Part shown: one piece after another, positions 5,030 to 33,128 of the stretch | Numbering within the stretch: the stretch's first letter is position 1 | How the letters are laid out: each line of letters begins with the position of its first letter | Origin: an uncultured Acidobacteriaceae bacterium | Lineage (GTDB): Bacteria; Acidobacteriota; Terriglobia; Terriglobales; Acidobacteriaceae | Assembly (NCBI GenBank): GCA_963846795.1 | Contig: CAWJXJ010000010.1 | Span: 35,673-99,672 of the forward strand | Reading direction: 5' to 3' | Length of the DNA stretch: 64,000 bases | Notes under the pieces: model-generated | The model's database searches: none | Told to the model about the DNA's origin: nothing | What the model saw: the letters and a program-made list of their open reading frames with translations, nothing else | Translations under genes and position numbers: made by a program

Positions 5030-5702
5030 AACTTTCGCGACACGGTGGTGCAGCTTTGGCTCCTGTGACTCCAGAGCACTGAAATTCAGCTTGAGTCAGG
5101 CTAGCAAGCGCCGGCTGTGTACCGATCTCCCTGTATATGTCGCGCTTCGAGCCTAGGTCAAAATTGCGGCGCCCACATCGGGAGAGTTCCTAGTCGTAGC
5201 TAATTCGTTCTATAAAGACTATCGATTTACATAACTATCTTCCGCCAGTCACGTCCCGCCGTGACACTGGTCACTGAAGAACCATAGTCTTCCCAATAGG
5301 ATGCCACTAGCCTTTGGCCTCAATGCCTATCTTTAGATACTATTCGCCGCGATATGCTTCGATAGGAATCTTATGCCTTTTAGTATGTATCCTATCCCTG
5401 CAGACACGGTTGTATCCATTCGGCCCCCAGAAAGCACCCCTGAGAACTTTCGTCGACTCCGAACTTTGGAAGAGGGGACACAGCACAGAGTTATGCACCT
5501 CAAGCAATAGTAATGTTCTATATGAAACATCCGTGCCTTTTGTCCCTCCATGTCCAGATTCTTCCGTGATGAGATGCGTTCCTGAGAAGCCCGCCGCAGC
5601 CTTCAATGGCTTGGAGTGGGCAGACCGGTTGCAACGACCTCCACCGGGTCGAACGCCAGACGATGCTTTCTGGGGTTTCGCAAGAAATCTCAGGAGGATG
5701 CG

Positions 5703-7883: not shown

Positions 7884-8209
7884 CTCGAGCCTCCAGCCCC
7901 GCGTATCCTGACACCCTCAAGGCCCGGCGTCAGATCCTGAAGTTCGCAACCACATGGGTCAGCGTATCAGCGCGATCGCGAGTCGCCAATGCATGACAGT
8001 GGATGTGGCTACTCCTACGTTCTTCGAGATGGGCGCGCCAACTGCGTGAAAACATGCCCGACCGACAGACGCTCCACGCATCTTTCGCGGCGAGCGCTTC
8101 GTGCGAGCAACTAAAGCCAGGTGTCCGGCGAAGCCGCGCCGCCATTCGTTAATGCGAATCTCCCGTTGCGCTCAGCATTGCACGGACTGGGCGCGAGAGG
8201 TCATTGTAC

Positions 8210-8527
8210 CTAGACGCAGCCCGTAGGTTTGGGGAGGCCGGCCAGTTTGCAGGCGCCTTTAGCGGGGCCGGAGGGGAACAGGTCGTAGATCTGCTTGAGG
8301 GTGAAGCCGGTCTCCTTGCACACCTTGCGAACCATGGGCGCGATGCCGAACTGCAGGTAATAATTGCGAATGTAGTTGATCACTTTCCAGTGCGCGTCGG
8401 TCAGTTGGCTGATCGATTCTGTCTCCGCGAAGTCGGTCGCTACCTTCTCGCACCAGCTCTCCGGCTGCTGCAGGAATCCATCCTCATCCACGTCGTAGGT
8501 TGTTCCGTGTACTGCGAATGTCGGCAC
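8210..8527 (-). CDS. dsrC: DsrC (sulfite reductase gamma-like / TusE family) with both conserved C-terminal cysteines.
   Basis: 105 aa ending GACKLAGLPKPTGCV (Cys-x10-Cys-Val). Confidence 0.9.
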   Translation of the reverse strand: MPTFAVHGTTYDVDEDGFLQQPESWCEKVATDFAETESISQLTDAHWKVINYIRNYYLQFGIAPMVRKVCKETGFTLKQIYDLFPSGPAKGACKLAGLPKPTGCV

Positions 8528-8542
8528 AGTCTGACCTCCTGA

Positions 8543-10201
8543 TCAGTTCATTTCGATATAGCCGCAAGGACACGCCTCGGCGCACTTCTTGCAGCCGTTA
8601 CATAACTCCAGTTTCACCTTGTAGTGTTCGCCCTTGGGCAGGCGCACGAAGCAGCTATTGCTGCAGTACATCCAGCAGGTCTCGCAATCCATGCACATGC
8701 CGCAGGACATACAGCGCTTGGCCTCTTCCACCACGTCGGCTTCGGTCAAGCCCAGTTCCACTTCGGTGTCAGGCTCGCGCTCGGCCACTGCCACATGCTG
8801 CCGCTCGTGCCGCGGCGCCGCCTTGTACCACTCCGGATGCACCTTGTCTTTGCCCACCAGCACCGGCACCGCCGGCTTCTGCAGCGGAACCCCGCGCAAG
8901 CGGGCATCGATGGCCTCGGCAGCAAAGCGCCCCTGGGCAATGGCGATGGTCACCAGCCCCAGGTCGGTATCATCCCCGCCGGCATAGACGCCGTCGACCG
9001 GGGTCACCCCGTAGTCGCCGGTCTTGATCCAGTCTTTTCCCGAATGCAACTCGTCGAAGCCCGCAAACTCCGGCTCCTGGCTGATGGCGGCAATGATGGC
9101 CGTCACCGGCAGCTCAAACTCGCTGCCTTCGATCGCCACCGGCCGCCGCCGTCCTGAGGCATCCGGCTCGCCCAGCTTCATGCGCAGCGAGCGCAGCGCG
9201 ACAGCGCGTCCCTCCGCCTGCAGCACCTCGACCGGCGCCGCCAGGAACTCGATCTTCACACCCTCTTCAATCGCGCCTTCAATCTCGGAAGCCGCTGCCG
9301 GCATCTCCGCCCGCGTCCGGCGATAAAGCAGCGTCACATCGGCGCCCAGCCGGTGGCTTACCCGTGCGGCATCGATTGCCGTATCCCCGCCGCCGATCAC
9401 CATCACCTTCTCGCCGATCTCGACCTTCTCGCCGCGATTCACCAGGTTCAGAAACTCCGTCCCGCCGAAGACATTCGGCGCCTCTTCCCCCGGAATCCTC
9501 AGCCGCAAACTCTTCTGCGCCCCGATGCCGACAAACACCGCCTGGTACTGCTGGCGCAGCTCCGCCATGGTCAGCTCGCGCCCGATCATGCAATCGCACT
9601 TCAGCTCCACCCCCAAGTCCAGGATGCGTTGGATCTCCGCATCCAGTACCTCGCGCGGCAGCCGGTAGCGCGGTATGCCGTAGCGCAGCATCCCGCCGGG
9701 CTGGGGAAAGGCTTCAAACACCGTCACCGCATAGCCCCGCCGGGCCAGTTGATAGGCGCACGACAGGCCGGCCGGCCCCGCTCCCACCACCGCCACTTTC
9801 TCCGTATGGGTTCCGTTGCTCAGTTTCGAAAGCTTCAGACCCTGGCTGATGCCAAAGTCCCCGAGGAAGCGCTCGATGGCGTTCACCGCCACTCCGCCAT
9901 CCTTCGCCGTGCGGTTGCAGTTGTCCTCGCAGGGATGCGGACACACCCTCCCGCAGACCGCCGGGAACGGGTTACGTTCCGCCAGCCGCTGCCACACCTG
10001 CTCGAAGGCCTGCTGGTTCGTCTGCCCATAGGCTTCCGCCTGTGCGATGGTGGTCAGCAGCTCGCGTATCTCGTTGCCGTTGGGACAATGTCCGGCGCAA
10101 GGCGGCGACTTGGCGAGGTAGCGCGGACGCAGGGGGCTGATGTCCCCGCCCCCAGTCGCCGTCTTGATTACCGGCTTTTTAACCTCTTTGAACAGCCCCA
10201 T
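8543..10201 (-). CDS. dsrL: DsrL-like NAD(P)H:acceptor oxidoreductase (GltD-like flavoprotein with a C-terminal ferredoxin domain).
   Basis: 552 aa. N-terminal Cys clusters (CAGHCP, CGRVCPHPCEDNC), dinucleotide folds VAVVGAGPAGLSCA and VMVIGGGDTAIDAA, and a C-terminal CMSCGMCMDCETC...CNGCKKCAEACPC. Sits between dsrB and dsrC. Confidence 0.85.
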   Translation of the reverse strand: MGLFKEVKKPVIKTATGGGDISPLRPRYLAKSPPCAGHCPNGNEIRELLTTIAQAEAYGQTNQQAFEQVWQRLAERNPFPAVCGRVCPHPCEDNCNRTAKDGGVAVNAIERFLGDFGISQGLKLSKLSNGTHTEKVAVVGAGPAGLSCAYQLARRGYAVTVFEAFPQPGGMLRYGIPRYRLPREVLDAEIQRILDLGVELKCDCMIGRELTMAELRQQYQAVFVGIGAQKSLRLRIPGEEAPNVFGGTEFLNLVNRGEKVEIGEKVMVIGGGDTAIDAARVSHRLGADVTLLYRRTRAEMPAAASEIEGAIEEGVKIEFLAAPVEVLQAEGRAVALRSLRMKLGEPDASGRRRPVAIEGSEFELPVTAIIAAISQEPEFAGFDELHSGKDWIKTGDYGVTPVDGVYAGGDDTDLGLVTIAIAQGRFAAEAIDARLRGVPLQKPAVPVLVGKDKVHPEWYKAAPRHERQHVAVAEREPDTEVELGLTEADVVEEAKRCMSCGMCMDCETCWMYCSNSCFVRLPKGEHYKVKLELCNGCKKCAEACPCGYIEMN

Positions 10202-10211
10202 GGCCCTTCCC

Positions 10212-10676
10212 TCACGCGTACGGATACAGGTTGCGTTTGAAGTCTTCCAGCTGATTCAGCAGCCGGTCATGCTTCTGCTCGTCCTCGGTCAGGTAGGTCA
10301 GCAGGTGCCGCTGCACGAACAGCCGGCAACTCTTGCGCGCCTTCTCCGCCAGCTCCAGCGTTTCCTTCTCCGCCGCCGCGTGCTGTTCGATCAGGTCCCA
10401 CACCTCGCCCAGCTCTTCCGGGGTCAGGCTGAAGGCCTGCTTCTCCACACTGTCCAGAATCGCCTGCTGCACCCGCTTGTGCATGGCCGAGTCCTGGCGG
10501 ATGATCTCCATCACCAACTGGATCAGCGGATTGTGCGTCTTGCCGATGATGGCCGAGGTCTGCGCGATACTTTCCTGCTCGATCTCCTGCCAGCGCCGCA
10601 AGACGGTCTTCAGTTCGTCCAGGTTGCCGGCCGCCGGCTTCGCAACTGCTTGCTTCGTGATTGTCGACATGCTCAC
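10212..10676 (-). CDS. Uncharacterised all-helical 154-aa protein inside the dsr operon (possible ferritin-like / four-helix-bundle fold).
   Basis: Tightly packed between dsrB (12-nt gap) and dsrL (10-nt gap). Charged helical sequence with ExxH-type spacing (EDEQKH, SAMHKRV). I cannot assign a family. Confidence 0.7.
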   Translation of the reverse strand: MSMSTITKQAVAKPAAGNLDELKTVLRRWQEIEQESIAQTSAIIGKTHNPLIQLVMEIIRQDSAMHKRVQQAILDSVEKQAFSLTPEELGEVWDLIEQHAAAEKETLELAEKARKSCRLFVQRHLLTYLTEDEQKHDRLLNQLEDFKRNLYPYA

Positions 10677-10688
10677 TGTCTCCCCTCC

Positions 10689-11777
10689 TTAGTAGCGGAC
10701 ATGCGCTGAGCGGGCAAAGGTCAGCCCCGCGTGCTTGAAGTCGTCAATGTGGTAGCGGGTGAACTCGAAGCCGGTCAGCTGGAAGAAACGCGGCCAGCCC
10801 ACCCGCTCGATCCACTCGCCCATGCGCTCATACTTGCGGGCATGCTCGGCGTACACCTTGACGATGGTGGTCACCGCGTCCACCACTTCCGGCCAGCGCG
10901 GCGGGTTGTTGGGCAAAAACGGTATCGCCAGCTTGGAGAACTTCGGCGTACTGCGCGCGTTGCTCACCTTGCCCCCGACCCAGATCGAGAGCCCGTCGTT
11001 TTCCGGATCGGCCAGCGGCATGGCCGGGCACACCGTGTAGCAGTTGCCGCAGTACATGCACTGTTCCTCGATCACTTCCACCGAGTTCGTGCCCCCCACC
11101 GTCGCCGGCCGGATCGCCCCGGTCGGGCAGGAAGAGATCAGCGTCGGCACCTCGCATACCCGCGGCAGCAGTTCGTGCTTGATCTGCGGCGGCTTGCGGT
11201 GAACCCCCAGAATGGCGATATCGGAGCAATGCACCGCCCCGCACATGTTCAGGCAGCAGGCCAGCGCGATGCGCAACTTGGCCGGCAGGTCCTCATGCGT
11301 GAAGTGCTCGCACACCGCGTCCATCACCGCCTTCACGATGCCCGAGGCGTCGGTCGCCGCCGAGTGGCAATGCACCCAGCCCTGGGTGTGCACGATGTTG
11401 CTGATCGAGTTGTTGGTCCCGCCCACCGGAAAACCATTCGCCAACAGCTCCTGCTTCAACGGCTCGATCTGGCTCGCGTCCTCCAGCAGAAACTCAACGT
11501 TGTTGCGGCTGGTGAAGCGCAGATAGCCGCCGCAGTACTTGTCCGCCAGCGCGGCGAACAGGCGCAGCGTCTGGATGCTGATCAGCCGTGGCGAGGCGGC
11601 GCGCACCGTATACAGCCGCGCCCCCGACTCGGCTACGTGGCACAGCACTCCCGGCGCCAGGTTCTCGTGATACTTCCATAGCCCGTAGTTCTGCTTCACT
11701 AGCGGCGGCAGGAACTTGTCATAGGACGGCGGCCCTATATCGGTCAGTCTGGGTTGCGCAGTCACGGTCGTGCTCAT
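10689..11777 (-). CDS. dsrB: Dissimilatory sulfite reductase beta subunit.
   Basis: 362 aa. [16 protein letters not shown] and the ferredoxin motif [16 protein letters not shown] overlap with dsrA. Confidence 0.95.
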
Positions 11778-12976
11778 TGCTCACCTCCCTGGACTTTCTG
11801 TTGGAAGTAGATATATGGGTTGTCACGCGGCGCCGACACCATCTCCGGCACCGGATCCAGGCCAATGCCATCCAGAAACGCCGGCATTCCGATGCGCTGA
11901 ATCATCTCCCCCACTCGTTCCCGGTTCTTGCCGTACTCGTCCCAGAACTCCCAGATCCGCCCCACCAGCTCCTTGATCGTCTCTTCCAGCTCCGCGGCGG
12001 GAACGAACGGGATCAGCACCGACGACAGCAGCGCCCCCTGCATGATCGGCGCCTTGGCCCCGATCAAAAGCACCGCTCCCCGCTCTTTGCCCGGCCGCAG
12101 CGCCTTGGGCATCACGTTGATGCAGTGCATGCAATGCACGCATTCATGGTTCTGAATGCTCACCTGCTTGCCGTCCCACTGGAAACTCTTGGCGGGACAC
12201 ATCTCGCAGATCTCCTTCTGGATGTCCATCCCCGCCGCCACATACTTGGCCACTTCCGCCTGGTCCACCTGCATCTCGTCCTTCCAGGTGCCAATCACCG
12301 ACAGGTCGGCGCGCGCCGCCGAAGCCACGCAGTCATTGGGGCAGCCCGCACACTTGATCTTGAACTTGTAGGCGAAGGCCGGCCGGTGCAGCTCGTCCTG
12401 ATAGTTCATGGTCAGGTCGTAGCACAGCTTCATGGTGTCGTAGCAGGCCCACTCGCAACGCGCCTGCCCCACGCAGCACGACGGGGTGCGCAGGTCGGAG
12501 CCCGAGCCCCCCAGGTCAAAGCCGGCCTGCGCCAGCTCCTGGAAGGTCGGCTCCAGTTGGTCGGTCGTGGTGCCCAGCAGAATGACGTCGCCGGTCGAGC
12601 CGTGCATGTTGGTCAAGCCCGAGCCGTGTTTCTCCCAGATGTCGCAGATGGTGCGCAGCGCCTCGCTGGTGTAGAACCAGCCCGCGGGATGGTTGATGCG
12701 CATGGTATGGAAGTGCGCGATGTTAGGAAACTGCTCGCCCAGGTCGCTGTAGCGGCCAATGACGCCGCCGCCGTAGCCCAGCACCCCCACCAGGCCGCCA
12801 TGTTTCCAATGGCCTTTCTTCTCCTGGTAGGAGAGTTCCAGTTGTCCCAACAGGTCCTTGGGAGCATCACTGGTCTGGCAGGCAGACTTGATCTCTTTTA
12901 CGAAACTGGGCCAGGGGCCCTTCTCCAGCTCGTCCAGCAGCGCCGTCTTGGGCTTGCCGTTGCCTTCTTCCGCCAT
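11774..12976 (-). CDS. dsrA: Dissimilatory sulfite reductase alpha subunit.
   Basis: 400 aa. [25 protein letters not shown] and [13 protein letters not shown] motifs. RBS AAGGAGA. Confidence 0.95.
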
Positions 12977-13325
12977 ATCTCACATTCTCCTTGGCTGGCT
13001 GGTGGCGCCGACGGTGGACTGGGGATTCGCCATGGCAGCCTGGCCATCGCAGCGCTTGCCGGCGGCTGATCGGCCATGCGGTGGGGCTGCGATGGACTCG
13101 CAAATCCACTATGCCTGAGCGGCGACGCACCCTACGGTGACGTCCGTCACTCTGTTGCGTGAGAGTTAGACGAACCCAGCATGACATGCTTAACTAACTA
13201 GAACTGACAATACCTACTTAGTCGAGTGTGTTAGTCGTGTTACTTATCTCACCCCCTGACCCGCTGCTTTCCCACCCCCCTACCCCTTCCCAATTATCTT
13301 CATAACTACTTCACACCCTACTCGC
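12440..13325. repeat. Copy 2 of the approximately 885-bp duplication.
   Basis: See copy 1 (1-885). Confidence 0.95.
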
Positions 13326-14114
13326 CGAAAGTAGGTTATCTTAACCAGTGGCCATAAATCGTCTGTATTATGCAGATGTCATCGCCAACTATAGTAATAC
13401 AGGCATAAAAACTGATGATTTGTATTGTCTCGTCAATATAGTCTCGTAGTTACTGTATAGCGTCGAATGGCCATAGAATCGCTGATATATCTTGACTGCT
13501 CGCTATCTAATCGTAAATAGCTGGCCCCATCCAGGCGATATATATGAATGCGACATTGCAGAAGTTACATTTTCGAAATAACTCTATCGAGATGGTAGAC
13601 AATCTATAGTTGCTGGTTCTGCTTGGATAATAGTTCTCTTCTCACGTATGAACGTGACCCCGGTCACCGCAATAGACATCTGCCACAGTGCATAGTCAAC
13701 TAGTTCGATGATTCAGGGCCGCAATTCTGCCCTGCGAACACAGCAAAACATGTTGCGCGACGAGAGTTGTCACGGCGGCGATGAGGATCGGGCTGAGCAG
13801 GTCCGGCGAGACCAGGCGAACAGTGTCCTCCTGGTTTCAACGGATGCACGCGACTGCTTGACCACAGCGTTGCCGGGCAGTTCCCAGCGATCACCGCCTG
13901 ACTGTCACTACTGACGATCACTCCAGATGGATTCCAGACTGCCACGGCAGTCGGCTATTTGCGAAGAAGATGCTTACGATTCACAGTTCGGTTCGGCTTC
14001 ATTCAATGGTTTACCCGAGCAATACCGCAGTTTCTTCGCAGGTGCAGTCCGTCGGGGCCACACATATACCCCTGTTCGAGGCCGCCGGCAAACGCGACGG
14101 CCGGGAGGTGCTTA

Positions 14115-14573
14115 GTGCCGAGTTACGTAATTCCTGATAAATGCGATGGGTGCAAGGCGTTGGACAAAACAGCCTGCCAACACATTTGCCCCAACGATCT
14201 GATGGTGCTCGACAAGGAAAAGATGAAGGCTTACAACCGCGATCCTATGATGTGCTGGGAGTGCTACAACTGCGTGAAGATTTGCCCCACCCAGGCAGTG
14301 CAGGTTCGTGGCTATGCCGACTTCGTTCCCTTGGGAGCATCCGCGGTTCCTCTCCGCTCCACCGACACCATCCTCTGGACTGTCACGTTCAGGGATGGCA
14401 CGCTGAAGCGTTTCAAATTCCCCATCCGTAGCACACCGGAAGGCACAGCGGTACCGAGTGGTGGTTTTGAGACCAAAGCGGATCTCAACAGCACCGCCCT
14501 CTACACCGAGCCGGCCTCACTGGGCTTGCCCGAGGTGGTTGGTTTAAGCAAAACCGGAGGTGCTCATGCCTAA
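14115..14573 (+). CDS. aprB: Adenylylsulfate (APS) reductase beta subunit.
   Basis: GTG start after GGGAGG. (M)PSYVIPDKCDGCKALDKTACQHICPNDLMVLD and CWECYNCVKICP. The long upstream extension of ORF 13959.. is not AprB-like. Confidence 0.9.
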   Translation: MPSYVIPDKCDGCKALDKTACQHICPNDLMVLDKEKMKAYNRDPMMCWECYNCVKICPTQAVQVRGYADFVPLGASAVPLRSTDTILWTVTFRDGTLKRFKFPIRSTPEGTAVPSGGFETKADLNSTALYTEPASLGLPEVVGLSKTGGAHA

Positions 14574-16509
14574 GTTCGAAACTGTTGTAGTAGAAACTGA
14601 TGTCTTGATTCTGGGCGGTGGCATGGCAGCCTGTGGCGCCGCTGTAGAGGCCGCTTATTGGGCCAAGCAGAACGGTCTGAAAGTGGTCTTGGTAGACAAA
14701 GCCGCAGTCGATCGCTCTGGAGCCGTGGCCATGGGTCTGTCGGCCATCAACCAGTACGTTGGGCTGAAGGATGGCACCAACACCCTGAAGGACTATGTTG
14801 ACTACGTCCGCAACGATCTCATGGGCGTCACCCGTGAGGACCTGGTAGCCAACATTGCCCGTCACGTGGACTCTTCCGTCCATCTCTTCGAGAAGTGGGG
14901 TCTGCCCATCTGGAAGGACAAGGACGGCAAGTACGTTCATGAAGGCCGTTGGCAGCTCATGATCAACGGCGAGTCCTATAAGGTGATCGTCGCCGAAGCG
15001 GCCAAGAACGCGTTCCGCGAAACAGGTGTAGGAGAGATTTACGAACGCGTGTTCATCGTTGGTCCGCTGCTGGATGGGGACCGCTGCGCCGGCGCGGTGG
15101 GCTTCTCTATCCGCGAGAACAAGCTGTTCATCTTCCGGGCGAAAGCAACCCTGGATGCAATGGGCGGCGCGGTCCACGTATTCAAACCCCGGAGCAGTGG
15201 CGAAGGTATGGGCCGCGCGTGGTATCCACCGTGGAATTCCGGCTCCTCCGCCTACTTCACTCTCAAGGCCGGGGCGGAAATGACCTGCCAGGAAGTGCGG
15301 TTCATCCCGGTGCGTTTCAAGGATGCCTACGGACCGGTGGGTGCATGGTTCCTTCTGTTCAAGTCGCGTGCCACCAACGCCATGGGCGGCAATTACATGG
15401 TGGAGCGCGCAGCAGAATTGGAGAAGTGGGGACCTTACGGGCGGGTAAAGCCGGTTCCGGCCAACCTGCGCAACTATCTTGGAATGCTCGACGTGCTGGA
15501 TGGAAAAGGGCCGATTTCAATGCGTACGGAAGAAGCCCTGACCAAGATCGCCGATCAGTACAAGGACGACCCCAAGGCCTACCAGAAAAAGATGAAGGAG
15601 TTGGAGTCGGAAGCCTGGGAAGACTTCCTCGACATGACGATTTCGCAAGCTATTCTGTGGGCCGCAACCAATGTGCGACCGGAACAGAAGAGCTCCGAGA
15701 TCGCCGCTGCCGAGCCTTACTTCATTGGCTCCCACTCCGGTGCCTCCGGCGCCTGGGTCAGCGGTCCCGAAGACCTGCAAACCGGTGAAACCAAGTCGCA
15801 ATACTTCTGGGGATATCCCTGCATGTCAACCGTGAAAGGGTTGTTCTGCGCAGGGGATGCTTCCGGCGCATCGAGCCACAAGTTCTCCTCCGGCTCGCAT
15901 GCGGAAGGTCGTATCGCTGCCAAGGCTGCGGTAAAGTACGTGGTCGATAACAACACCCTACCCAAGCTGGATCAGGCTGCCATCGACAAGCTGGCCGCCG
16001 AAATCCTGCAGCCGATGGAGACGTTCGAGAAGAATAAGAACGCCACCACCGACGAAGATGTCAATCCCAACTACATCAAACCGCGCTCGTTCATGTTCCG
16101 TTTGCAGAAGATCATGGACGAATACGCCGGTGGGGTGACTGCCCAGTTCATGACCAACAAGCCCCAGTTAGAGCGGGCCCTCGAACTACTGGCCTTTCTG
16201 AAGGAAGACTCGGATAAGCTGGCCGCTTCGAACCTGCACGAACTGATGCGCTGCTGGGAGAACGTGCACCGTATGTGGCAGGCGGAAGCGCACGTCCGCA
16301 CGGTGCTGTTCCGTGAGGAGACGCGTTGGCCGGGCTACTACTTCCGTTCGGATACACCCAAGCTGGATGAAGACAAGTGGCACGTCTTCGCCAACTGCCG
16401 GTGCGATCCCGCCACTGGAAAGTGGGAGATGCTGACTCGTCCCATTCTCCACGTGTTCGAGACAGTAAAAACCAAAGAGCCGGAGCCGGTAGCGGCAGCG
16501 GCCCGTTAA
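14566..16509 (+). CDS. aprA: Adenylylsulfate (APS) reductase alpha subunit.
   Basis: MPKFETVVVETDVLILGGGMAACGAAVEAA (FAD fold). About 647 aa. 8-nt overlap with aprB. RBS GGAGG. Confidence 0.95.
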   Translation: MPKFETVVVETDVLILGGGMAACGAAVEAAYWAKQNGLKVVLVDKAAVDRSGAVAMGLSAINQYVGLKDGTNTLKDYVDYVRNDLMGVTREDLVANIARHVDSSVHLFEKWGLPIWKDKDGKYVHEGRWQLMINGESYKVIVAEAAKNAFRETGVGEIYERVFIVGPLLDGDRCAGAVGFSIRENKLFIFRAKATLDAMGGAVHVFKPRSSGEGMGRAWYPPWNSGSSAYFTLKAGAEMTCQEVRFIPVRFKDAYGPVGAWFLLFKSRATNAMGGNYMVERAAELEKWGPYGRVKPVPANLRNYLGMLDVLDGKGPISMRTEEALTKIADQYKDDPKAYQKKMKELESEAWEDFLDMTISQAILWAATNVRPEQKSSEIAAAEPYFIGSHSGASGAWVSGPEDLQTGETKSQYFWGYPCMSTVKGLFCAGDASGASSHKFSSGSHAEGRIAAKAAVKYVVDNNTLPKLDQAAIDKLAAEILQPMETFEKNKNATTDEDVNPNYIKPRSFMFRLQKIMDEYAGGVTAQFMTNKPQLERALELLAFLKEDSDKLAASNLHELMRCWENVHRMWQAEAHVRTVLFREETRWPGYYFRSDTPKLDEDKWHVFANCRCDPATGKWEMLTRPILHVFETVKTKEPEPVAAAAR

Positions 16510-16515
16510 CAGGTC

Positions 16516-16544
16516 GCGAGGTCCCGCGATAACCGGGACCTCGC
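16516..16544 (+). terminator. Strong intercistronic hairpin just after the aprA stop (attenuator or mRNA-stabiliser candidate).
   Basis: GCGAGGTCCCG-CGATAAC-CGGGACCTCGC, an 11-bp perfect stem. No U-tract. Confidence 0.45.
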
Positions 16545-16566
16545 ACCCTCATACAAAGGTTGGCCC

Positions 16567-16854
16567 ATGGCCGAGGAATCACAAAAAGTTTGTCCCCATT
16601 GCCACCGACCATTGGTGCGCTGGAAGAATCCCCCGCTGGCCTCTTGGGACGGCGAATACCAGTATGTGTGCTTCAACGATGACTGCGCCTATTTTGTGGG
16701 CGGCTGGGTATGGATGAAGGACCGTTTCAATGTGAATGCTTCCTATCGCTATCGCCTGGAGCCGAACACCGGGGACAGTGGTCCGCTGCCCGTGTGGTCG
16801 CGCGACGCGATGAAGAGCAATATTTTGCCGGACGAGGATGGACGAGATGTCTGA
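16567..16854 (+). CDS. Small Cys-rich (zinc-ribbon-like) protein of unknown function.
   Basis: 95 aa with CPHC...VCFNDDC. Lies between aprA and qmoA and overlaps the next gene. Confidence 0.6.
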
Positions 16855-17680
16855 AAACCAGGTAACACCCGAGCAGATTCTGCAGGAAAGCCCGCGCCTG
16901 AAGCTGGACAGTTGCTTCAACTTCGCCTGCGGACCCGATAAAGACTGTTTCAATTCCTGCTGCCACGACGTGGCAATTCTGCTTTCACCCTACGACGTGC
17001 TGCGGCTTAAGCATGCACTTAAGATGAACTCTTCCGAGTTTCTTGAGAAGTACACGCTCACCACCGCCTCTCACGACAAGCGTGTTCCCGCCGTCCTGCT
17101 CAAGATGGACGAGCAGAGCCTGAAGTGTCCTTTGGTGAGCCAGCAAGGTTGCACCGTCTATGCCAACCGCCCGTGGGCCTGCCGCATGTATCCGCTGGGG
17201 ATGGCTGAGCCCAAAGGTCCACAAGGCGCGGAGCAACGTTTTTATTTCATGGTCGAAGAAAAGCTCTGTCACGGACACGGCACGGGCAAGGAGTGCTCGG
17301 TGCGGGAGTGGATCGAGAACCAGGACATTGAGCCTTTCGACGAAATGCAGACTCCGTTTTTGGAATTCATGTCGCATCCGGGATGGGAGAAGCCGGAGGA
17401 GTTGAGCGCCGATTGTATGGCGATGTACTTCATGGCGCTGTACGACCTGGACCGCTTCCGCCGTTTTGTGTTCGACACCCGCTTCCTGGAACTGTTCGAA
17501 GTGGACGAGGCGCGCCTTCAGGCCCTGGCCGATGATGACGCAGAGTTGCTGGAGTTCGCCATCGACTGGCTGTCGTTCAGTCTGTTTCATGAGAAGCGGA
17601 TGAGGCTGAGAAAGCCCATCGCGTCCGCACCGTTGGCCACCTGCGGCGCAAGCCAAGCTAGCGCGAGTTCACCGGCCTAG
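16838..17680 (+). CDS. YkgJ/UPF0153-like putative Fe-S or Zn-chelating protein (CxxCxxCC family).
   Basis: [17 protein letters not shown] and [23 protein letters not shown]. An alternative start exists at 16847. Confidence 0.7.
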
Positions 17681-17686
17681 AGGATT

Positions 17687-18961
17687 ATGGCAAGCATTGA
17701 TTCAACAAATGGCAGGGGCGGCACCATTCTGGTGGTGGGCGGCGGCATCGCCGGCATCACCACTGCCCTGGAAGCGGCCGAGGCCGGCTGTGACGTGGTG
17801 CTGATAGAGAAGTCGGCGACCCTGGGAGGGCGAGTCGCAGGCTTTAATCAATATTTCCCGAAACTATGTCCTCCCTCCTGCGGCCTCGAAATCAATTTCA
17901 AACGTCTGAATGCCAACCCGAGGGTGACGGTCCTCACCTTGGCGGAATTGGAAAGTCTTAGCGGCTCCCCGGGCAGCTATGAAGCCGTTGTGCGGATTGC
18001 GCCACGCTACGTCACCCAGGACTGCACTCTCTGCGGTGAATGTTCTGCGGTGTGTCCGGTAGAGGTTCGCGACGAGTTCAACTACGGCCTGACCAGCGTC
18101 AAGGCGGCACGGCTGCCACGACGCACAGCTTATCCCGCACAGTATGTTATCGACCGGGCGGCTTGTCCCGCCGACTGCCATGCCTGCGTGGATGCCTGCA
18201 AGTACCGGGCGATTGATCTGGAGCAACCGCCGGTTAAGAAGACGTTCAAGGTCGCATCCGTCGTAATGGCTACCGGATGGACGCCCTACGACGCCACCAG
18301 GATCGAGAACCTGGGCTTTGGCAAGTGCGCCAATGTTCTGACGAACGTCCTTTTCGAGCGGATGGCTGCCGCCGACGGGCCCAGCCAGGGAAAAATTCTC
18401 CGGCCTTCAGACGGCAAAGCGCCGAAGGCGGTTGCGTTTGTACAATGTGCCGGCTCGCGGGATGAGAATCACCTCCCCTACTGCTCGTCCGTCTGCTGCA
18501 CCGCCTCCCTGAAACACGCCACCTATGTTCGCAGCCAATACCCGGAAGCGAAGATCACGATGTTCTACATCGACCTGCGCGCTCCCGGACATTTGCAGGA
18601 GTTTGCCGCAAAGATCGTCGCTGCTAACAACATCGAGCTGATTAAAGGGAAGGTGGGAACGGTGAGGGAACATCCGGGCAGCCGCGATGTTTTGCTAGTT
18701 GCCGAGGACGTGCTCGGGGGACGAAAGATCATGCGGGAATTTGATCTGGTGGTGCTAGCTACCGGAATGGTTCCGCAAAACAAAGGAATAGCCTCGCAAG
18801 TGCAGCTCGATCAATTCGGCTTTGTGATAGACGGCGAACTTGGCATCTACGCCGCCGGTTGCGCCAAACGGCCGGCGGAGGTCTCGGCGTCGGTACGCGA
18901 CGCCACGGGCGCAGCGTTGCAAGCTTGGCAGATGGCCACGGGAGCGGTTCGTCATGGATAA
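17687..18961 (+). CDS. qmoA: Quinone-interacting membrane-bound oxidoreductase subunit A (HdrA-like flavoprotein).
   Basis: ILVVGGGIAGITTALEAAEAG, plus CGLEINFKR and CAGSRDENHLPYCSSVCC. Confidence 0.9.
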   Translation: MASIDSTNGRGGTILVVGGGIAGITTALEAAEAGCDVVLIEKSATLGGRVAGFNQYFPKLCPPSCGLEINFKRLNANPRVTVLTLAELESLSGSPGSYEAVVRIAPRYVTQDCTLCGECSAVCPVEVRDEFNYGLTSVKAARLPRRTAYPAQYVIDRAACPADCHACVDACKYRAIDLEQPPVKKTFKVASVVMATGWTPYDATRIENLGFGKCANVLTNVLFERMAAADGPSQGKILRPSDGKAPKAVAFVQCAGSRDENHLPYCSSVCCTASLKHATYVRSQYPEAKITMFYIDLRAPGHLQEFAAKIVAANNIELIKGKVGTVREHPGSRDVLLVAEDVLGGRKIMREFDLVVLATGMVPQNKGIASQVQLDQFGFVIDGELGIYAAGCAKRPAEVSASVRDATGAALQAWQMATGAVRHG

Positions 18962-21206
18962 GCGACTGGGCGTATATGTTTGCAGCGGCTGCTCCATCGG
19001 CGAATCGGTGGATGTCGATCAGCTCTCGAAGGTCGCTACCAGCGAATATCAGGCGCCGGTCTGCCGGACTCACCCCTTCCTATGTGGCGAAGAGGGCCTG
19101 AAGCTGATCCACGACGATCTGCAACAGGGCAACGTCAATGCCATCGTTGTGGCCGCTTGCTCCCCTCGGGTGAAGACCCGGCAGTTTGCTTTCAACTCCG
19201 GCTCGGTGATGGACCGCGTCAATCTGCGCGAGCAGGTGGCGTGGTGTCATGAAGCCCGGCACGAAGATACCCAGATGCTGGCCGAAGATCTGCTGCGCAT
19301 GGGTATCGTACGCGCGCAGAAGATGGAGCCCTTGGAGCCGCTGGCCGAAGAGATTTCGCGAGACATCCTCATCGTGGGCGGCGGAGTCACAGGCATTACC
19401 GCCGCGTTAGAAGCTGCCGATGCGGGTTTCGACGTTATCCTGGTCGAGACGCAGGCCGAACTGGGCGGCATGGCGCGTTCGATGAAGCGGGATATTCCCT
19501 CCCCCCCTTCTTACACCGAAGCCCAGCCTAACCGTCTGGCCGAGCAGATCAACGCTGTAACTTCGCATCCCCGGATCAAGCTGTATTGCTCGTCGAAAAT
19601 CGTCAAGACAGAGGGGCAGCCGGGACGATTTGACATCACGCTGGAGACCAACGGAGAGGTCACAACCCACCGCGCCGGCTCCATTCTGCTGGCTACCGGC
19701 TGGAAGCCCTACGATGCAACCAAGCTCACTGCGCTTGGCTACGGGTTGACGGATGTTGTCACCAACCTCGAGTTCGAGACTATGGCAGCCGAAGGCCTGA
19801 TCCACCAGCCCTCAACCGGCGAACCGGTGGACAGCGTCTTGTTTGTTCAGTGTGCGGGCTCGCGCGATCCCGATCATCTCCCCTATTGCTCTTCGACCTG
19901 CTGTGTAAACACCCTCAAGCAGACCGAGTACATGCGCGAGCAGAACCCTGAGGCACAGGTCTTCATTGTCTACAAGGACATGATGACCCCCGGAGCTTAC
20001 GAGAAGTACTACCAGAAGCTTCAGCAAGAGCCGCTCAACTTCTTTGTAAAGGGAGTTGTGACTGAAGTTGAACGATGCTCCGACGGAAGGGTCATGGTCG
20101 GGGTGGATCAAACTTTGTTGGGCGTACCGATGCAGATTCCGGTCGACCTGGTGGTGCTGGCTACCGGGATGGCGCCGAACTCAGCCGACGGACCTGCCAT
20201 CCGCACCTTGCATGATGCCGAGGCCAAAGCGCTCAGGAACGAATCCGACACCCAACGCCAGGAAGCGGAGAAGGTGGTCGAGCAGTACAAGCAGCACGCG
20301 GGCACGGAAATCCTGAACCTCACCTATCGCCAGGGCCCTGACCTGCCGGTGTTGCAGGATGGTTTTCCTGATTCGCACTTCGTCTGCTTCCCCTACGAGA
20401 CATTGCGTACCGGCATTTATGCTGCCGGCGCGGTGCGCGCGCCAATGGACTCAACCCTGGCCCGGGAAGACGCCCGCGGCGCGGTGATGAAATCCATTCA
20501 GTGTATACAGATGGCCACGCATGGCGAGGCGGTGCATCCGCGCGCCGGCGACCTCTCATATCCCAGCTTCTTCCTGCAGCGCTGCACCTCGTGCAAGCGG
20601 TGCACCGAGGAGTGTCCGTTTGGCTCCATCGATGAAGACGAGAAAGGCACGCCCAAGTTCAATCCTTACCGCTGCCGTCGTTGCGGTATCTGCATGGGGG
20701 CTTGCCCGGAACGCATTATCTCCTTCAAGAACTACTCGGTCGACATGATCGCCAGCATGGTGAAGGCGATTGAGGTGCCGGACGAAACCGAAGACAAGCC
20801 GCGCATTTTGATCTTTGCTTGCGAAAACGACGCCTATCCGGCGCTGGATATCGCCGGCATGAACCGGGCTTCCTACGACGCCAGCGTGCGTGTCATCCCT
20901 CTGCGCTGCCTGGGGTCGATGAACATTGTCTGGATCGCCGATGCGTTGTCGCGCGGCATTGACGGCGTGCTGCTGCTGGGGTGCAAGTTCGGCGAGGACT
21001 ACCAGTGCCACTTCGTGCATGGCAGCGAGCTGGCCAGCCGTCGGCTGGAAAACGTTAAAGACACATTGACCCGACTGCAGTTGGAGTCCGATCGCGTGCG
21101 GCTGGTACAGGTTCCGATGGACGGGGCGGCACAGTTGCCGAGCATCATCGACGAATTTGCCGAGAAAATTCGCGAACTAGGACCCAATCCTTACAAGGGC
21201 TTTTGA
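18954..21206 (+). CDS. qmoB: Qmo subunit B (HdrA-like flavoprotein with ferredoxin and MvhD-like domains).
   Basis: Start at MDKRLGVYVCSGCSIG (ATGGATAA overlap with qmoA). ILIVGGGVTGITAALEAADAG. Ferredoxin motifs CTSCKRCTEECP and CRRCGICMGACP. Confidence 0.9.
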   Translation: MDKRLGVYVCSGCSIGESVDVDQLSKVATSEYQAPVCRTHPFLCGEEGLKLIHDDLQQGNVNAIVVAACSPRVKTRQFAFNSGSVMDRVNLREQVAWCHEARHEDTQMLAEDLLRMGIVRAQKMEPLEPLAEEISRDILIVGGGVTGITAALEAADAGFDVILVETQAELGGMARSMKRDIPSPPSYTEAQPNRLAEQINAVTSHPRIKLYCSSKIVKTEGQPGRFDITLETNGEVTTHRAGSILLATGWKPYDATKLTALGYGLTDVVTNLEFETMAAEGLIHQPSTGEPVDSVLFVQCAGSRDPDHLPYCSSTCCVNTLKQTEYMREQNPEAQVFIVYKDMMTPGAYEKYYQKLQQEPLNFFVKGVVTEVERCSDGRVMVGVDQTLLGVPMQIPVDLVVLATGMAPNSADGPAIRTLHDAEAKALRNESDTQRQEAEKVVEQYKQHAGTEILNLTYRQGPDLPVLQDGFPDSHFVCFPYETLRTGIYAAGAVRAPMDSTLAREDARGAVMKSIQCIQMATHGEAVHPRAGDLSYPSFFLQRCTSCKRCTEECPFGSIDEDEKGTPKFNPYRCRRCGICMGACPERIISFKNYSVDMIASMVKAIEVPDETEDKPRILIFACENDAYPALDIAGMNRASYDASVRVIPLRCLGSMNIVWIADALSRGIDGVLLLGCKFGEDYQCHFVHGSELASRRLENVKDTLTRLQLESDRVRLVQVPMDGAAQLPSIIDEFAEKIRELGPNPYKGF

Positions 21207-21209
21207 TTT

Positions 21210-22391
21210 ATGGCAGAGAAGCTTGTACTGCAACCAGACGCGAGGTTTATCCAGGAGGCGATTGCCAACGGCGGCGAGTTCAAGCAGTGCATGCAGTGCG
21301 CCACCTGCAGCTCAACCTGCTCGCTCTCGACGGAAGAGAACCCGTTTCCCCGCCGCCCCATGCTGCTGGCGCAGTTGGGCATGGAGCGCGAGCTGCTTCA
21401 GGATCCCTCGCCCTGGCTCTGCTTCTATTGCGGCGATTGCTCCAAGTCGTGCCCTCGTCAGGCCAATCCCGCCGAGAGCATGATGGCGCTCCGCCGCTAC
21501 CTCACCACCCGCTACGATTGGACCGGCGTGTCGCGTTTCATGTACCGGTCGGCCTGGGCCGAACTGGGAGTGCTGGCCCTGGTGGCGGCTTTTATGGTGG
21601 CGCTGTTTACGCTCCCCCAGAGCTTTGGCTTTGGCCTGCTGGCCCGCTCCACCCCGGAAGCGCGCAATGTCGTTATGCTCGACAAGTTCGCGCCGACCAT
21701 GGTGGTACATCACGGCGATGCAATTCTGGCGTCCTTGTTAAGCTTCTTCCTGCTTACTAACGCAGCGCGCATGTTTATTTTCCTGACGCGAGGTAAAAGG
21801 GCGCCTTTGCGCGTCTACCTAGCGCAGCTTCCGGAATTTTTGATTCAGGCTGTGACCCAGATTCGCTGGAAGCAGTGCGAAGACAAAAATGCGATCACCA
21901 ACTGGGTGCGTCATCTGTTTCTTGTAACCGGCTACGGCACGATTTTCACATTGGTAGTTATCTTCCTACCCTGGTTCCAGGTAGAAGACAGTAGTTTCCA
22001 TTGGACCAGCCTGCTTGGTTACTACTCCACCGTCGTCCTCATTGCCGCAACCCTCTGGATTCTCATCGACCGGATGGGCAAGCGCACGGAGATGCATCGC
22101 TTCAGCCATCTTTCCGATTGGCTATTTCCTATTCTGTTGTTCCTTACCGCGGTTACCGGAATCGCAGTGAACATCCTGCGGCTGGAGAATCTGGCCATGC
22201 CCACGTACATCCTGTACACGGTACACATGGCAATCGCGGTGCCAATGCTGATTGTGGAGGTGCCTTTCGGTAAATGGGCCCACCTTCTGTACCGGCCGAT
22301 TGCAATTTATGTGGCGGCGGTGAACAGAAAGGAGTTCGCAGCGTCAGGGCAGCAAGCCGCCATGGCAGCCCAAGCCGTCGATCCGGCGTAG
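21210..22391 (+). CDS. qmoC: Qmo subunit C (HdrC-like Fe-S domain fused to an HdrE/NarI-like membrane domain).
   Basis: CMQCATCSSTC and CFYCGDCSKSCP, followed by multiple hydrophobic helices. Confidence 0.9.
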   Translation: MAEKLVLQPDARFIQEAIANGGEFKQCMQCATCSSTCSLSTEENPFPRRPMLLAQLGMERELLQDPSPWLCFYCGDCSKSCPRQANPAESMMALRRYLTTRYDWTGVSRFMYRSAWAELGVLALVAAFMVALFTLPQSFGFGLLARSTPEARNVVMLDKFAPTMVVHHGDAILASLLSFFLLTNAARMFIFLTRGKRAPLRVYLAQLPEFLIQAVTQIRWKQCEDKNAITNWVRHLFLVTGYGTIFTLVVIFLPWFQVEDSSFHWTSLLGYYSTVVLIAATLWILIDRMGKRTEMHRFSHLSDWLFPILLFLTAVTGIAVNILRLENLAMPTYILYTVHMAIAVPMLIVEVPFGKWAHLLYRPIAIYVAAVNRKEFAASGQQAAMAAQAVDPA

Positions 22392-22517
22392 TGGGCTCGG
22401 TAGCGGCTTCAAATTGAATTGAGTGAAATGCGCAAGTTGGACTTATCGATTTCTGATACGGGAGTAGATAGCAGAATTCAAACTTAACTTCATTGCGAGT
22501 AGTCAAGGAGACATACA

Positions 22518-23783
22518 ATGGCGACGCTAGTTCCGCCCCATGGCAGTCCGGAGCTGAAGGTTCTCCTGCTTGATGGCAAAGCCAAGGCAGAAGAAATAAA
22601 GAAAGCAAATACTCTTAAAAAAATACCTCTCACCAGCCGGGAAACCGGCGACCTGATCATGATGGGCATCGGGGCCTTCACCCCGCTCGATGGCTTCATG
22701 GGCAAGGACGACTGGAAGGGCTGCTGTGACGAGTACAAGCTGCCCAGCAGGAACAACCTGTTCTGGCCGATTCCGATTACGCTCTCCGCCGACGAGGATC
22801 TTGCGAAGTCGATTGCTATCGGCGAGGAAGTGGCCCTCTGGGATGTCGAAACCGACTCGCTTGTGGGCACCATGCAGGTGAACGAGAAGTACACCATCGA
22901 CAAGGAGCACGAGTGCAAGCAGGTCTTCCGCACCACCGACCCGAAGCACCCAGGCGTGCAGAAGGTAATGGAGCAGGCGGCGGTGAACCTTGCCGGTCCG
23001 GTGAAGGTAGTCTCGGAGTCGTATTTCCCCGAGGATTTTCCAGAGATCTATCAGCGGCCGGCCGACGCGCGCAAGCGGTTCGCGGAGCGCGGCTGGACGA
23101 CTGTCGCTGCACTACAGTTGCGCAACCCGATGCACAACTCGCATGCTTATCTGGCATGGATTGCCATCGAAGTCTGCGACGGCGTTTACGTGCATCAATT
23201 GCTGGGCAAACTGAAGCCTGGCGACATCCCGGCCGACGTTCGCGTGAAGGCGATTGATGCGCTGGTAAACAAGTACTTCCGCAAGGAACGCGTGATCCAG
23301 GGTGGCTATCCCATGGAAATGCGGTATGCCGGTCCGCGCGAAGCCCTGTTGCACGCGTTGTTCCGCCAGAACTATGGATGCTCGCACCTCATCGTGGGCC
23401 GCGATCATGCCGGAGTAGGCGACTACTACGGGCCATTCGATGCTCAGAAGATCTTTGCCGAGATACCGGCAGGAGCCATGGCGATCCAGCCGCTGTGCAT
23501 GGACTGGACGTTCTACTGCTACGAGTGCGGCAGCATGGCCTCGATGAAGACCTGCCCACATGAGAGCAAGGCTGTGATCGATGACAGCGGCAACTACAAA
23601 GGCGGGGCTCGCCTACTGTTGTCGGGTACTCTGTTACGCAAGCTGATGAGCGAGGGCAAGCCGGTTCCGGCGGAATTCTCCAAGCCTGAGGTCATCGCCG
23701 TCCTGAAACAGTACTACGACACGCTCGAAGAAAAGGTCGAAGTTGAGCTCCACGGAGCAGCGACCGGAGCGGTCAAGAAATAA
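22518..23783 (+). CDS. sat: Sulfate adenylyltransferase (ATP sulfurylase).
   Basis: 421 aa with the [12 protein letters not shown] and GRDHAGVG motifs. Confidence 0.95.
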
Positions 23784-23893
23784 CCCTGTCGCTGGCACCC
23801 CTTTTTTACCGGGTTGCGAGTGGCAGTGAACTTCAGATGCAGCCTGTACCGGTGACTCTGGCGCAGGCCGCATCTGCTGGTGGAGAGAACGCC

Positions 23894-31047: not shown

Positions 31048-31251
31048 ACAACTGCGCTTCAAAGACATCGCCGCTGGTTGAGGAGTGAATTCCTGGGCGC
31101 CGGCGTGCGCGCAATCACATCCCGATGTGACAAACAGCACTGAGAGTATCCATCCAGATAGGGATACTCAGCGTGGACGCTGTGCTCATCGCCGGACGTG
31201 CTCCTCTGAGCACCTTTGTCGAACTTCCTGCCCTCTGTCCAAAAGGACATC

Positions 31252-33119: not shown

Positions 33120-33128
33120 GAGGACGCT

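Follow-up and report, generated by a model that had tools for sequence, protein, structure and literature searches.

A cluster of dissimilatory sulfur metabolism genes was analysed in a 64,000-nt stretch of DNA from an uncultured Acidobacteriaceae bacterium (GenBank assembly GCA_963846795.1, contig CAWJXJ010000010.1, positions 35,673 to 99,672), called the window below, to which all positions refer unless another contig is named. Positions 8210-23783 of the window hold two divergent gene sets, dsrA-dsrB-x-dsrL-dsrC on the minus strand (8210-12976) and aprB-aprA-qmoABC-sat on the plus strand (14115-23783). This cluster is probably the cytoplasmic core of dissimilatory sulfate respiration in a member of Candidatus (Ca.) Korobacteraceae (Terriglobales), most likely operating reductively and with its dsr unit present in duplicate. 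The reductive direction is pointed to by the combination of reductive-type DsrAB, a type 2 DsrL (DsrL-2), a DsrD-type gene, dsrT-dsrMKJOP, and QmoABC, with no dsrEFH, sox, or sqr genes in the 64 kb.

An initial annotation of the window, made from its letters and open reading frames (ORFs), had named the dsr, apr, qmo, and sat genes, had suspected a second-type DsrL accompanying reductive DsrAB, and had recognized acidobacterial surroundings and a gene set of the kind reported from peat and soil Acidobacteriota. These points were borne out by the family scores, by the YRR motif and 552-aa length of DsrL (from a DsrL classification that was run), by the closest relatives in Terriglobales, and by the description of this gene set in 2018 (PMC6018796), respectively. 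The second dsrA copy (window 1-887) and two ORFs between aprA and qmoA had been omitted.

Identity and type of the core enzymes

The named dsr, apr, qmo, and sat genes far exceeded the curated family cut-offs, with the exception of qmoC (Table 1). In the AprBA-QmoABC-Sat module, aprB, aprA, and sat scored above their cut-offs, qmoA and qmoB were both HdrA-like, and qmoB carried the MvhD/FlpD domain. The N-terminus of AprB was read as VPSYVIPDKCDGC.

DsrA and DsrB are both full-length, and the siroheme/[4Fe-4S] cysteine motifs are present in DsrA (CX5C ... CX3C, as CVGQARC and CPNDC). Searched against the PDB with phmmer, DsrA matched Archaeoglobus fulgidus at 573 bits and the reductive enzymes of Desulfovibrio at 498-506 bits, and tblastn against rdsrA of the SUP05 phage Lau218 (oxidative type, and the sole such sequence from the phage collection) gave 276 bits and 38% identity. 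No match was returned when DsrA was searched against plasmids with tblastn. Over a trimmed alignment, DsrA was 87% and 86% identical to two Microflora Danica "Acidobacteriaceae" metagenome-assembled genomes (MAGs), 75-79% to other Terriglobia and Bryobacteraceae, 62% to Smithella, 62% to A. fulgidus, 59% to Desulfovibrio vulgaris (2v4j), and 42% to Lau218 rDsrA. A neighbour-joining tree rooted with DsrB placed DsrA within Acidobacteriota, inside a clade that D. vulgaris, A. fulgidus, and Smithella share and that leaves Lau218 rDsrA outside (the branch of Terriglobia MFD04944 is a mis-extracted DsrB and should be disregarded). From these identities and this tree, DsrA is assigned to the reductive bacterial type. 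The placement agrees with the reductive type of all dsrAB-bearing Acidobacteriota known so far (PMC10564751).

DsrL's NAD(P)-binding domain contains the YRR motif (LLYRRTRAEMP, within VTLLYRRTRAEMPAA), which together with a short architecture is the hallmark of DsrL-2 (Loffler et al. 2020, PMC7596348). In DsrL-1A, an insertion of ~32 aa is found in the substrate domain and an extension of ~30 aa in the linker, both of which DsrL-2 lacks (PMC7596348). With 552 aa, against 654 aa in the DsrL of Allochromatium vinosum, the DsrL of the window was judged by length alone to lack the DsrL-1A insertions. It is classified as type 2 from motif and length and is predicted to be NADP(H)-specific, as the DsrL-2 of Desulfurella is strictly NADP(H)-dependent (PMC7596348). 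A DsrL that accompanies reductive DsrAB is always of type 2 (PMC7596348), and the context here, beside reductive dsrAB and with DsrD in the genome, fits the description of DsrL-2C by Diao et al. 2023 (PMC10591310).

A functional DsrC was defined by a CysB located 11 residues before the penultimate CysA in the C-terminal arm. Both redox-active cysteines are present, since the C-terminus reads GACKLAGLPKPTGCV; they are Cys93 (GAC) and Cys104 (GCV) of 105 residues.

Same-species assemblies and genes left of the window

The exact DsrA of the window is MFZ0703972.1 of the "Candidatus Korobacteraceae bacterium" MAG GCA_049280535.1, and three ENA long-read assemblies carry it on long contigs as well. 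These same-species assemblies are 99.8% identical to the window at the nucleotide level. The nearest relatives that carry a name are Ca. Korobacteraceae, Ca. Sulfotelmatobacter, and Terriglobales. Ca. Sulfotelmatobacter is itself part of Ca. Korobacteraceae (Terriglobales, Acidobacteriota). The closest GTDB representative, at 87% DsrA identity, is a different species.

The gene order in the same-species assemblies begins with sat, qmoC, qmoB, qmoA, the CxxCxxCC gene, the zinc-ribbon gene, aprA, and aprB, all of which are transcribed away from dsrA, followed by the first copy of the dsr unit (copy 1). Beyond it lie genes for a DUF302 protein, a porin, GTP cyclohydrolase II, a universal stress protein, a peroxiredoxin, and a CGGC protein, then dsrV and a second copy of the dsr unit (copy 2). 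After copy 2 come dsrT, dsrM, dsrK, dsrJ, dsrO, dsrP, and a YeiH-like permease gene, with dsrT starting ~4.2 kb to the left of window position 1. The NCBIfam equivalog cut-offs were exceeded by DsrM (479 against 300 bits), DsrK (735 against 400), DsrJ (147 against 100), DsrO (302 against 200), and DsrP (454 against 350).

The region was extended through a 100%-identical permease to contig JBAPQI010000090.1 (L087) of GCA_049280535.1, which starts with the last 127 nt of dsrC and overlaps locus L002, from another same-species assembly, at 99.8%. After the permease, L087 encodes a 50-aa ORF, dsrWa (uroporphyrinogen-III methyltransferase), an 83-aa protein whose gene lies ~12.1 kb to the left of window position 1, and dsrN (CobB-like amidase, 425 bits). 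The opposite strand past dsrN (L087 9950-14737) holds four genes, which encode a CCG/HdrD-like protein, a membrane protein of 253 aa resembling DsrM, a Fer4_11 protein, and NrfD fused to a class III cytochrome c. The set resembles another DsrMK(OP)-like or a Tmc/Hmc-like complex.

Within the window itself, none of the DsrD, DsrE/DsrH, DsrM/DsrK, DsrN, DsrT, TusA, or Sox families was matched among the large ORFs or the 53 small ORFs outside annotated genes. The earlier observation that dsrD, dsrEFH, and dsrMKJOP are absent thus stands for the window. For dsrMKJOP and dsrD, this absence follows from where the window was cut, with the dsrT-dsrMKJOP and DsrD-like/dsrN genes lying beyond the left edge in the same-species assemblies.

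A divergent DsrD candidate

DsrD is an allosteric activator of DsrAB and a marker of reductive metabolism. The 83-aa protein encoded between dsrWa and dsrN had no match in Pfam or NCBIfam and no sequence match in the PDB, including the DsrD structures. Its family is present in most of 80 related dsr loci (in L014, L021, L022, and others at ~12300-12600) and is encoded nearly always directly 3' of dsrB, the canonical position of dsrD. When an alignment of 31 family members was compared by hhalign with three canonical DsrD sequences (one from D. vulgaris and two derived from the loci), an E-value of 1e-4 and a probability of 56% were obtained over 61 of ~80 columns. The Pfam DsrD model (PF08679) matched two of the 31 members at E ~0.08, and several members matched winged-helix domains. 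The canonical DsrD profile had no match in the window or in loci L001-L006 and weak matches elsewhere.

The order dsrWa, 83-aa gene, dsrN is the dsrWa-dsrD-dsrN arrangement of Hausmann et al. 2018, in which these three genes are consecutive and stand a few genes past dsrP in SbA1 and SbA5 (PMC6018796, Table S2). The DsrD-like gene lies downstream of dsrMKJOP both in this species and in locus L010, where it is found 3' of dsrP and a YeiH-like gene. The 83-aa protein is a putative divergent DsrD of a large uncultured clade, for which the support from synteny is strong and that from sequence is moderate, and the putative DsrD was concluded to have moved from dsrB to dsrN in Terriglobales.

Evidence for sulfate reduction

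By analogy with the protein families and with published work on relatives, Sat would activate sulfate to adenosine 5'-phosphosulfate (APS), which AprBA would reduce to sulfite with electrons from the quinol pool delivered through QmoABC. DsrAB and DsrC would then reduce the sulfite to give the DsrC trisulfide, and DsrMKJOP, encoded after copy 2 and ~4 kb outside the window, would reduce the trisulfide to sulfide and regenerate DsrC. DsrL-2 would supply NADPH-derived electrons to DsrAB, and the divergent DsrD (~12 kb outside the window) would be expected to activate it.

The initial annotation had regarded the direction of the pathway as ambiguous. This is not well supported, in view of the reductive DsrA (for which the phylogenetic placement it had called for was run), the DsrL-2, the dsrT-dsrMKJOP and dsrWa/DsrD-like/dsrN genes outside the window, and later literature. 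It had also stated that reductive DsrAB combined with a dsrD elsewhere in the genome would make this an ordinary sulfate-reduction locus. Because reductive DsrAB and a DsrD-like gene occur in the same chromosome region, that is essentially the situation found, with the qualifications that the DsrD is divergent and identified mainly by synteny and that direction is predicted from sequence. The features of an oxidative Dsr system did not appear: no dsrEFH (by Pfam families) accompanies dsrAB, DsrA is of the reductive type, and DsrL has the YRR motif and is not DsrL-1. In the scheme of Diao et al. 2023 (PMC10591310), DsrD and DsrL-2C beside reductive DsrAB are an indicator of the reductive pathway, and bioreactor metatranscriptomics indicated that an acidobacterium bearing both dsrL and dsrD ran the pathway reductively (Dyksma and Pester 2023, PMC10564751).

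Several points weigh against the reductive assignment. The score of QmoC was below the NCBIfam cut-off (206 against 300 bits, NF038018), yet the whole model was aligned. The DsrA tree is a neighbour-joining tree of DsrA only, with one oxidative reference (Lau218) and DsrB as outgroup. The dsrD, dsrN, and dsrMKJOP genes were read from other assemblies of the species and not from the window's own record, and DsrD was assigned from synteny together with a profile match that is weak (probability 56% in hhalign; PF08679 in two of 31 members). DsrL-2 also occurs in true sulfur oxidizers (PMC7596348), and Desulfurivibrio alkaliphilus and cable bacteria employ a reductive-type Dsr for disproportionation or for the oxidation of sulfide (PMC6018796; PMC13293266). 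Finally, the direction proposed for this species is predicted from its genes and from its relatives.

An alternative, which corresponds to the ambiguous direction of the initial annotation, is the hypothesis of Hausmann et al. under which the same enzymes would work at least partly in reverse or in disproportionation. Sulfide or sulfur would be converted to sulfate through DsrC, DsrAB, AprBA, and Sat, with DsrL-2 passing electrons to NADP+ and an aerobic chain taking up the quinol electrons. Such a mode would suit the embedding of dsrL in the operon and the DsrL-2 of some established oxidizers (PMC7596348), the oxidation of sulfide by organisms with reductive-type DsrAB (D. alkaliphilus and cable bacteria), the aerobic respiratory chains of related Acidobacteriota, and the peroxiredoxin, universal stress protein, and putatively ferritin-like x in or beside the cluster, which hint at life at an oxic-anoxic interface. 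It is nevertheless considered unlikely, as neither dsrEFH (by Pfam families) nor sqr, sox, or tusA occurs in the 64 kb, there is a DsrD-type gene and organisms with oxidative rDsrAB are without DsrD, DsrL-2 beside reductive DsrAB and DsrD indicates reduction in the scheme of Diao et al. (PMC10591310), and the pathway operated reductively in the sole acidobacterium that has been examined under controlled conditions (PMC10564751). The DsrE/DsrH families were likewise absent from the 21-kb loci around either copy, DsrEFH type II not having been searched with models of its own. A 2026 study described this second DsrEFH type in many "sulfate reducers"; Acidobacteriota are not among the carriers it named or the phyla it highlighted.

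Respiration of mainly sulfite or organosulfonates, with apr-qmo-sat recently acquired or little used, as in the dsr-only relatives of Ca. Sulfotelmatobacter, is very unlikely. Although SbA1, SbA4, SbA5, and SbA6 have dsr genes with incomplete sulfate-activation sets (Hausmann et al., PMC6018796) and a permease of the TauE/SafE sulfite-exporter family is encoded 3' of sat, the sat, aprBA, and qmoABC genes here are intact, tightly packed, and syntenic with those of many relatives, and one copy of the dsr unit is placed directly beside them.

The duplicated dsr operon

The cluster read here as serving sulfate reduction contains a dsr unit that is present twice. By blastn, positions 1-887 of the window were 99.3% identical to positions 12440-13325 and comprise the 5' end of a second dsrA with its upstream region; the same 350 nt precede both copies. 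Copy 2 starts 12.44 kb from copy 1, and a unique spacer of 7.3 kb lies between them. Over the whole unit, the two copies are ~99.6% identical. Within one assembly, their coding sequences differ at 18 nt and 2 aa, and all 10 of the 10 ORFs are intact. Both copies and the spacer were found on single contigs of ERZ25039458 and ERZ25039467, and a matching copy 1 was found in ERZ25039540. When copy 1 (window, L003, and L004) was aligned with copy 2 (L002, L001, and L005), six consistent copy-specific differences were found, and both flanks were unique. In L002 and L001, copy 2 extends as dsrB-x-dsrL-dsrC-dsrT-dsrMKJOP, and copy 1 adjoins aprBA. The contigs of the short-read MAG break off precisely at the borders of the repeat, which is what a true repeat would produce.

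The closest relatives have one copy, in the order aprBA / dsrM2K2-dsrV / dsrA-dsrB-x-dsrL-dsrC-dsrT-dsrMKJOP, so the copy on the dsrT side is probably ancestral and that on the aprB side is probably a recent, species-specific addition. The simplest reading is a recent duplication or ongoing gene conversion, which doubles the dosage of the soluble sulfite-reducing module. An assembly artefact (a collapsed or expanded repeat, or a two-strain chimera) of a genome that has in reality a single dsrA-dsrB-x-dsrL-dsrC-dsrT-dsrMKJOP operon would be in line with the one copy within 21 kb in the close relatives L007, L008, and L010, with the error-prone, frameshift-bearing long-read assemblies, and with the break of the short-read MAG at the repeat, but is highly improbable given that both copies and the same spacer recur on single contigs in two independent assemblies and in the window, with a third assembly matching copy 1, that the six positions separate the copies consistently in three assemblies each, and that the flanks on either side of each copy are unique. 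No report of an intact, near-identical dsrA-dsrB-x-dsrL-dsrC duplicate was found in the literature examined.

The G+C content of the dsr repeat unit (window 8000-12000) is 63%, compared to 54-58% in the spacer and the surrounding genes. This difference may stem from the codon bias of highly expressed genes or from a foreign origin.

Gene x and other conserved accessory genes

In 25 of the 26 loci with gene x, it was found 18-150 nt upstream of dsrL; 34 of 60 dsrL loci are without x. Its 617 homologs are all unnamed or misnamed, and the best 120 of the 617 are 72-95% identical to it. The AlphaFold2 model consists of four long helices (predicted local distance difference test score, pLDDT, 84). 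Invariant residues are E31, E55, D60, H64, E101, E131, and H134, with an ExxH motif in helix 4 only, where the diiron bundles of ferritin-like and rubrerythrin-like proteins would carry paired E...ExxH motifs. Weak matches were obtained to Pfam Rubrerythrin (E 0.033), to ferritin-like folds by Foldseek (best E 0.045, template modelling scores of 0.36-0.40), and to PDB profiles, where a de novo diiron protein was best (E 0.15). The invariant Glu, Asp, and His residues recall the metal sites of ferritin-like proteins. Gene x was not seen to be discussed in the available portions of Loffler et al. 2020 (PMC7596348) and Diao et al. 2023 (PMC10591310).

A displaced or fused DsrD was considered as the identity of x and rejected, as x is all-helical, has 152 aa, and shows no similarity to the DsrD family; further, the two coexist as dsrB-dsrD-x-dsrL in many loci.

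A more speculative proposal is that the putatively metal-binding x and DsrL-2 form an unrecognised two-gene module, widespread among DsrL-2 lineages (Acidobacteriota, Ignavibacteria, Kapabacteria, and others), which would couple NADPH to DsrAB or guard that step from O2 in facultatively aerobic sulfate reducers. The recent duplication of the whole unit, with one copy joined to the genes for APS reduction and the other to those for the membrane complex, would then raise the dose or let the copies be regulated separately. Taken as a whole, this proposal is rather unlikely to be correct.

The zinc-ribbon and CxxCxxCC genes were found as a pair 3' of aprA in every related locus with that flank in range, and the pair is kept across Acidobacteriota, Ignavibacteria, Zixibacteria, Planctomycetota, and Myxococcota. 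It probably corresponds to genes shown in Fig. 2 of Hausmann et al. (PMC6018796). The dsrV-like gene occupies the same position as dsrV in SbA1, SbA7, and the relatives L007-L010.

Feature coordinates and neighbouring genes

Coordinates of the dsr, apr, qmo, and sat genes and of associated features are listed in Table 1. The divergent intergenic region (12977-14114) showed neither a sigma-70 consensus promoter nor a convincing terminator, and no Rfam family matched it.

Table 1. Features of the dsr-apr-qmo-sat locus (window positions, except for the last row)
Feature	Position	Strand	Evidence
dsrA copy 2, 5' part (179 codons), running off the left edge of the window	1-537	-	translation equals DsrA residues 1-179 of copy 1
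Upstream (promoter/5'-UTR) region of dsrA copy 2	538-887	-	blastn repeat with copy 1
dsrV-like siroheme synthase N-terminal domain protein (precorrin-2 dehydrogenase type)	1310-1975	+	PF13241, PF14824, TIGR01470 158 bits; divergent from dsrA copy 2
Repeat unit copy 1, 5.1 kb (~350 nt upstream plus dsrA-dsrB-x-dsrL-dsrC, to dsrC stop)	8210-13325	-	multiple alignment of both copies
dsrC, with both C-terminal cysteines	8210-8527	-	PF04358 130 bits; C-terminus GACKLAGLPKPTGCV
dsrL, type 2 (NADP(H)-type iron-sulfur flavoprotein)	8543-10201	-	552 aa; NF009410 588 bits; Fer4_20, Pyr_redox_2, C-terminal ferredoxin
Gene x, 152-aa four-helix protein, upstream partner of dsrL	10212-10670	-	no Pfam or NCBIfam family
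dsrB	10689-11777	-	TIGR02066 509 bits (cut-off 341)
dsrA	11774-12976	-	TIGR02064 579 bits (cut-off 393); PDB matches, neighbour-joining tree
Divergent intergenic region, 1.1 kb	12977-14114		~350 nt on the dsrA side belong to the repeat; centre AT-rich
aprB	~14115-14573	+	TIGR02060 193 bits (cut-off 136), match from residue 53 of a long ORF; GTG start inferred
aprA	14560-16509	+	TIGR02061 897 bits (cut-off 642)
Zinc-ribbon protein, 95 aa	16567-16854	+	PF04606 28 bits; syntenic 3' of aprA
CxxCxxCC protein, 280 aa	16838-17680	+	PF03692 37.5 bits; synteny between aprA and qmoA
qmoA	17687-18961	+	HdrA-like flavoprotein, 354 bits to HdrA2; position and synteny
qmoB	~18954-21206	+	HdrA-like with FlpD/MvhD domain, PF02662 142 bits; 750-aa form as called in locus L003
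qmoC	21210-22391	+	NF038018 206 bits (cut-off 300); full-length alignment 9-366
sat (ATP sulfurylase)	22518-23783	+	NF003166 479 bits (cut-off 387); PUA_2 and ATP-sulfurylase domains
Possible accessory: cytidylate-kinase-like protein with BON domain	23837-24703	+	PF13189 and PF04972
Possible accessory: TauE/SafE anion permease	24744-25658	+	PF01925 161 bits
DsrD-like 83-aa protein	L087 8037-8285		between dsrWa and dsrN

On the 3' side of sat, the segment 23837-27316 encodes two PF13189 proteins (one with BON), the TauE/SafE permease, and a 259-aa ORF. Homologs of the kinase-like gene were found near apr or dsr in loci L017, L030, and L035. The kinase-like protein and the permease may be accessories of the pathway, in nucleotide recycling or transport, with their membership inferred.

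Further along, positions 31216-35483 encode an Rrf2-family regulator and, after it, a cytochrome c with multiple haems (paired-CXXCH, NrfB-like) and a protein of 784 aa without a Pfam match; these genes may form a further electron-transfer module. An Acido-Lenti-1 small RNA (Rfam RF01687, 50.5 bits) was found at 46137-46191 and fits the phylum Acidobacteriota; in the same segment (45583-46191), an IS200-like Y1 transposase gene lies on the other strand at a distance of 12 nt. Three genes are each split into two frames, namely those for the peroxiredoxin (2676-3163), the phosphate-selective porin (5616-7224), and a P-type ATPase (56115-58675). Their interpretation as pseudogenes was rejected; the splits are most likely long-read frameshift errors, because the break points vary from assembly to assembly and L001 and L004 encode an intact porin.

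Significance

Acidobacteriota that carry dsr genes, most of them uncultured, play a major part in the cryptic sulfur cycle of soil and peat, a cycle that competes with methanogenesis, and this locus gives a contiguous, long-read view of such a cluster. The kind of cluster has been known since 2018, and the question of direction is not newly opened by it. Added are the intact operon duplication, a relocated and divergent putative DsrD missed by standard models, and three conserved genes (x, zinc-ribbon, and CxxCxxCC) that are real knowledge gaps in the pathway of these lineages.

Annotation limited to the window or to Pfam wrongly yields "no dsrD, no dsrMKJOP" for this clade. The putative DsrD is too divergent for the Pfam model and, in Terriglobales, has moved away from dsrB; automated calls of this kind for DsrL-2 lineages may be false negatives. 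Short-read MAGs break at the near-identical dsr duplication and therefore hide it, which also affects abundance estimates based on dsrAB.

Similarity to described gene clusters

Among the closest known systems are the clusters of peatland Acidobacteria (SbA1 and SbA7, Ca. Sulfotelmatobacter; SbA5, Ca. Sulfotelmatomonas; SbA2 and SbA3, Ca. Sulfopaludibacter; PMC6018796), with which the locus has in common sat, aprBA, qmoABC, dsrAB, a dsrL-dsrC pair 3' of dsrAB, dsrT, dsrMKJOP, dsrV, dsrWa-dsrD-dsrN, and the syntenic conserved genes. Ca. Sulfotelmatobacter belongs to the same family as this species, and DsrA is ~81% identical to one of its sequences. Unlike those clusters, the locus has dsrA-dsrB-x-dsrL-dsrC twice, with one copy directly beside aprBA; in the closest relatives, by contrast, dsrM2K2 and dsrV lie between aprB and dsrA.

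MAG CO124, a relative of Ca. Sulfopaludibacter (PMC10564751), resembles this locus in its reductive-type DsrAB, DsrL-2, DsrD, and full sat-apr-qmo-dsr set. Its reductive operation in a bioreactor makes it the best physiological proxy, although it belongs to another order (Bryobacterales-type, former subdivision 3), so that a transfer of direction is uncertain. The DsrL-2 of Desulfurella amilsii and the DsrL-2C subgroup (PMC7596348; PMC10591310) are like the DsrL of the window in being short, in the YRR motif, in the N-terminal two-cluster and C-terminal ferredoxin domains, and in the location beside reductive dsrAB. A difference is gene x, found ahead of dsrL here and in 25 other loci.

The canonical dsrABD and sat/aprBA-qmoABC genes of Desulfovibrio specify the same enzymes and chemistry, and DsrA is 59% identical to that of D. 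vulgaris 2v4j. The locus differs from them in that no dsrD directly follows dsrB (a divergent DsrD being encoded beside dsrN), that dsrL and x are present, that aprA and qmoA are separated by two additional conserved genes, and that all modules are located within ~30 kb. A precedent for a second dsrAB in a genome is provided by Chlorobaculum tepidum, in which the dsr genes are of the oxidative type and one copy is a putative pseudogene (Loy et al. 2009, PMC2702494), whereas here both copies are intact and two of the 18 coding differences between them change an amino acid.

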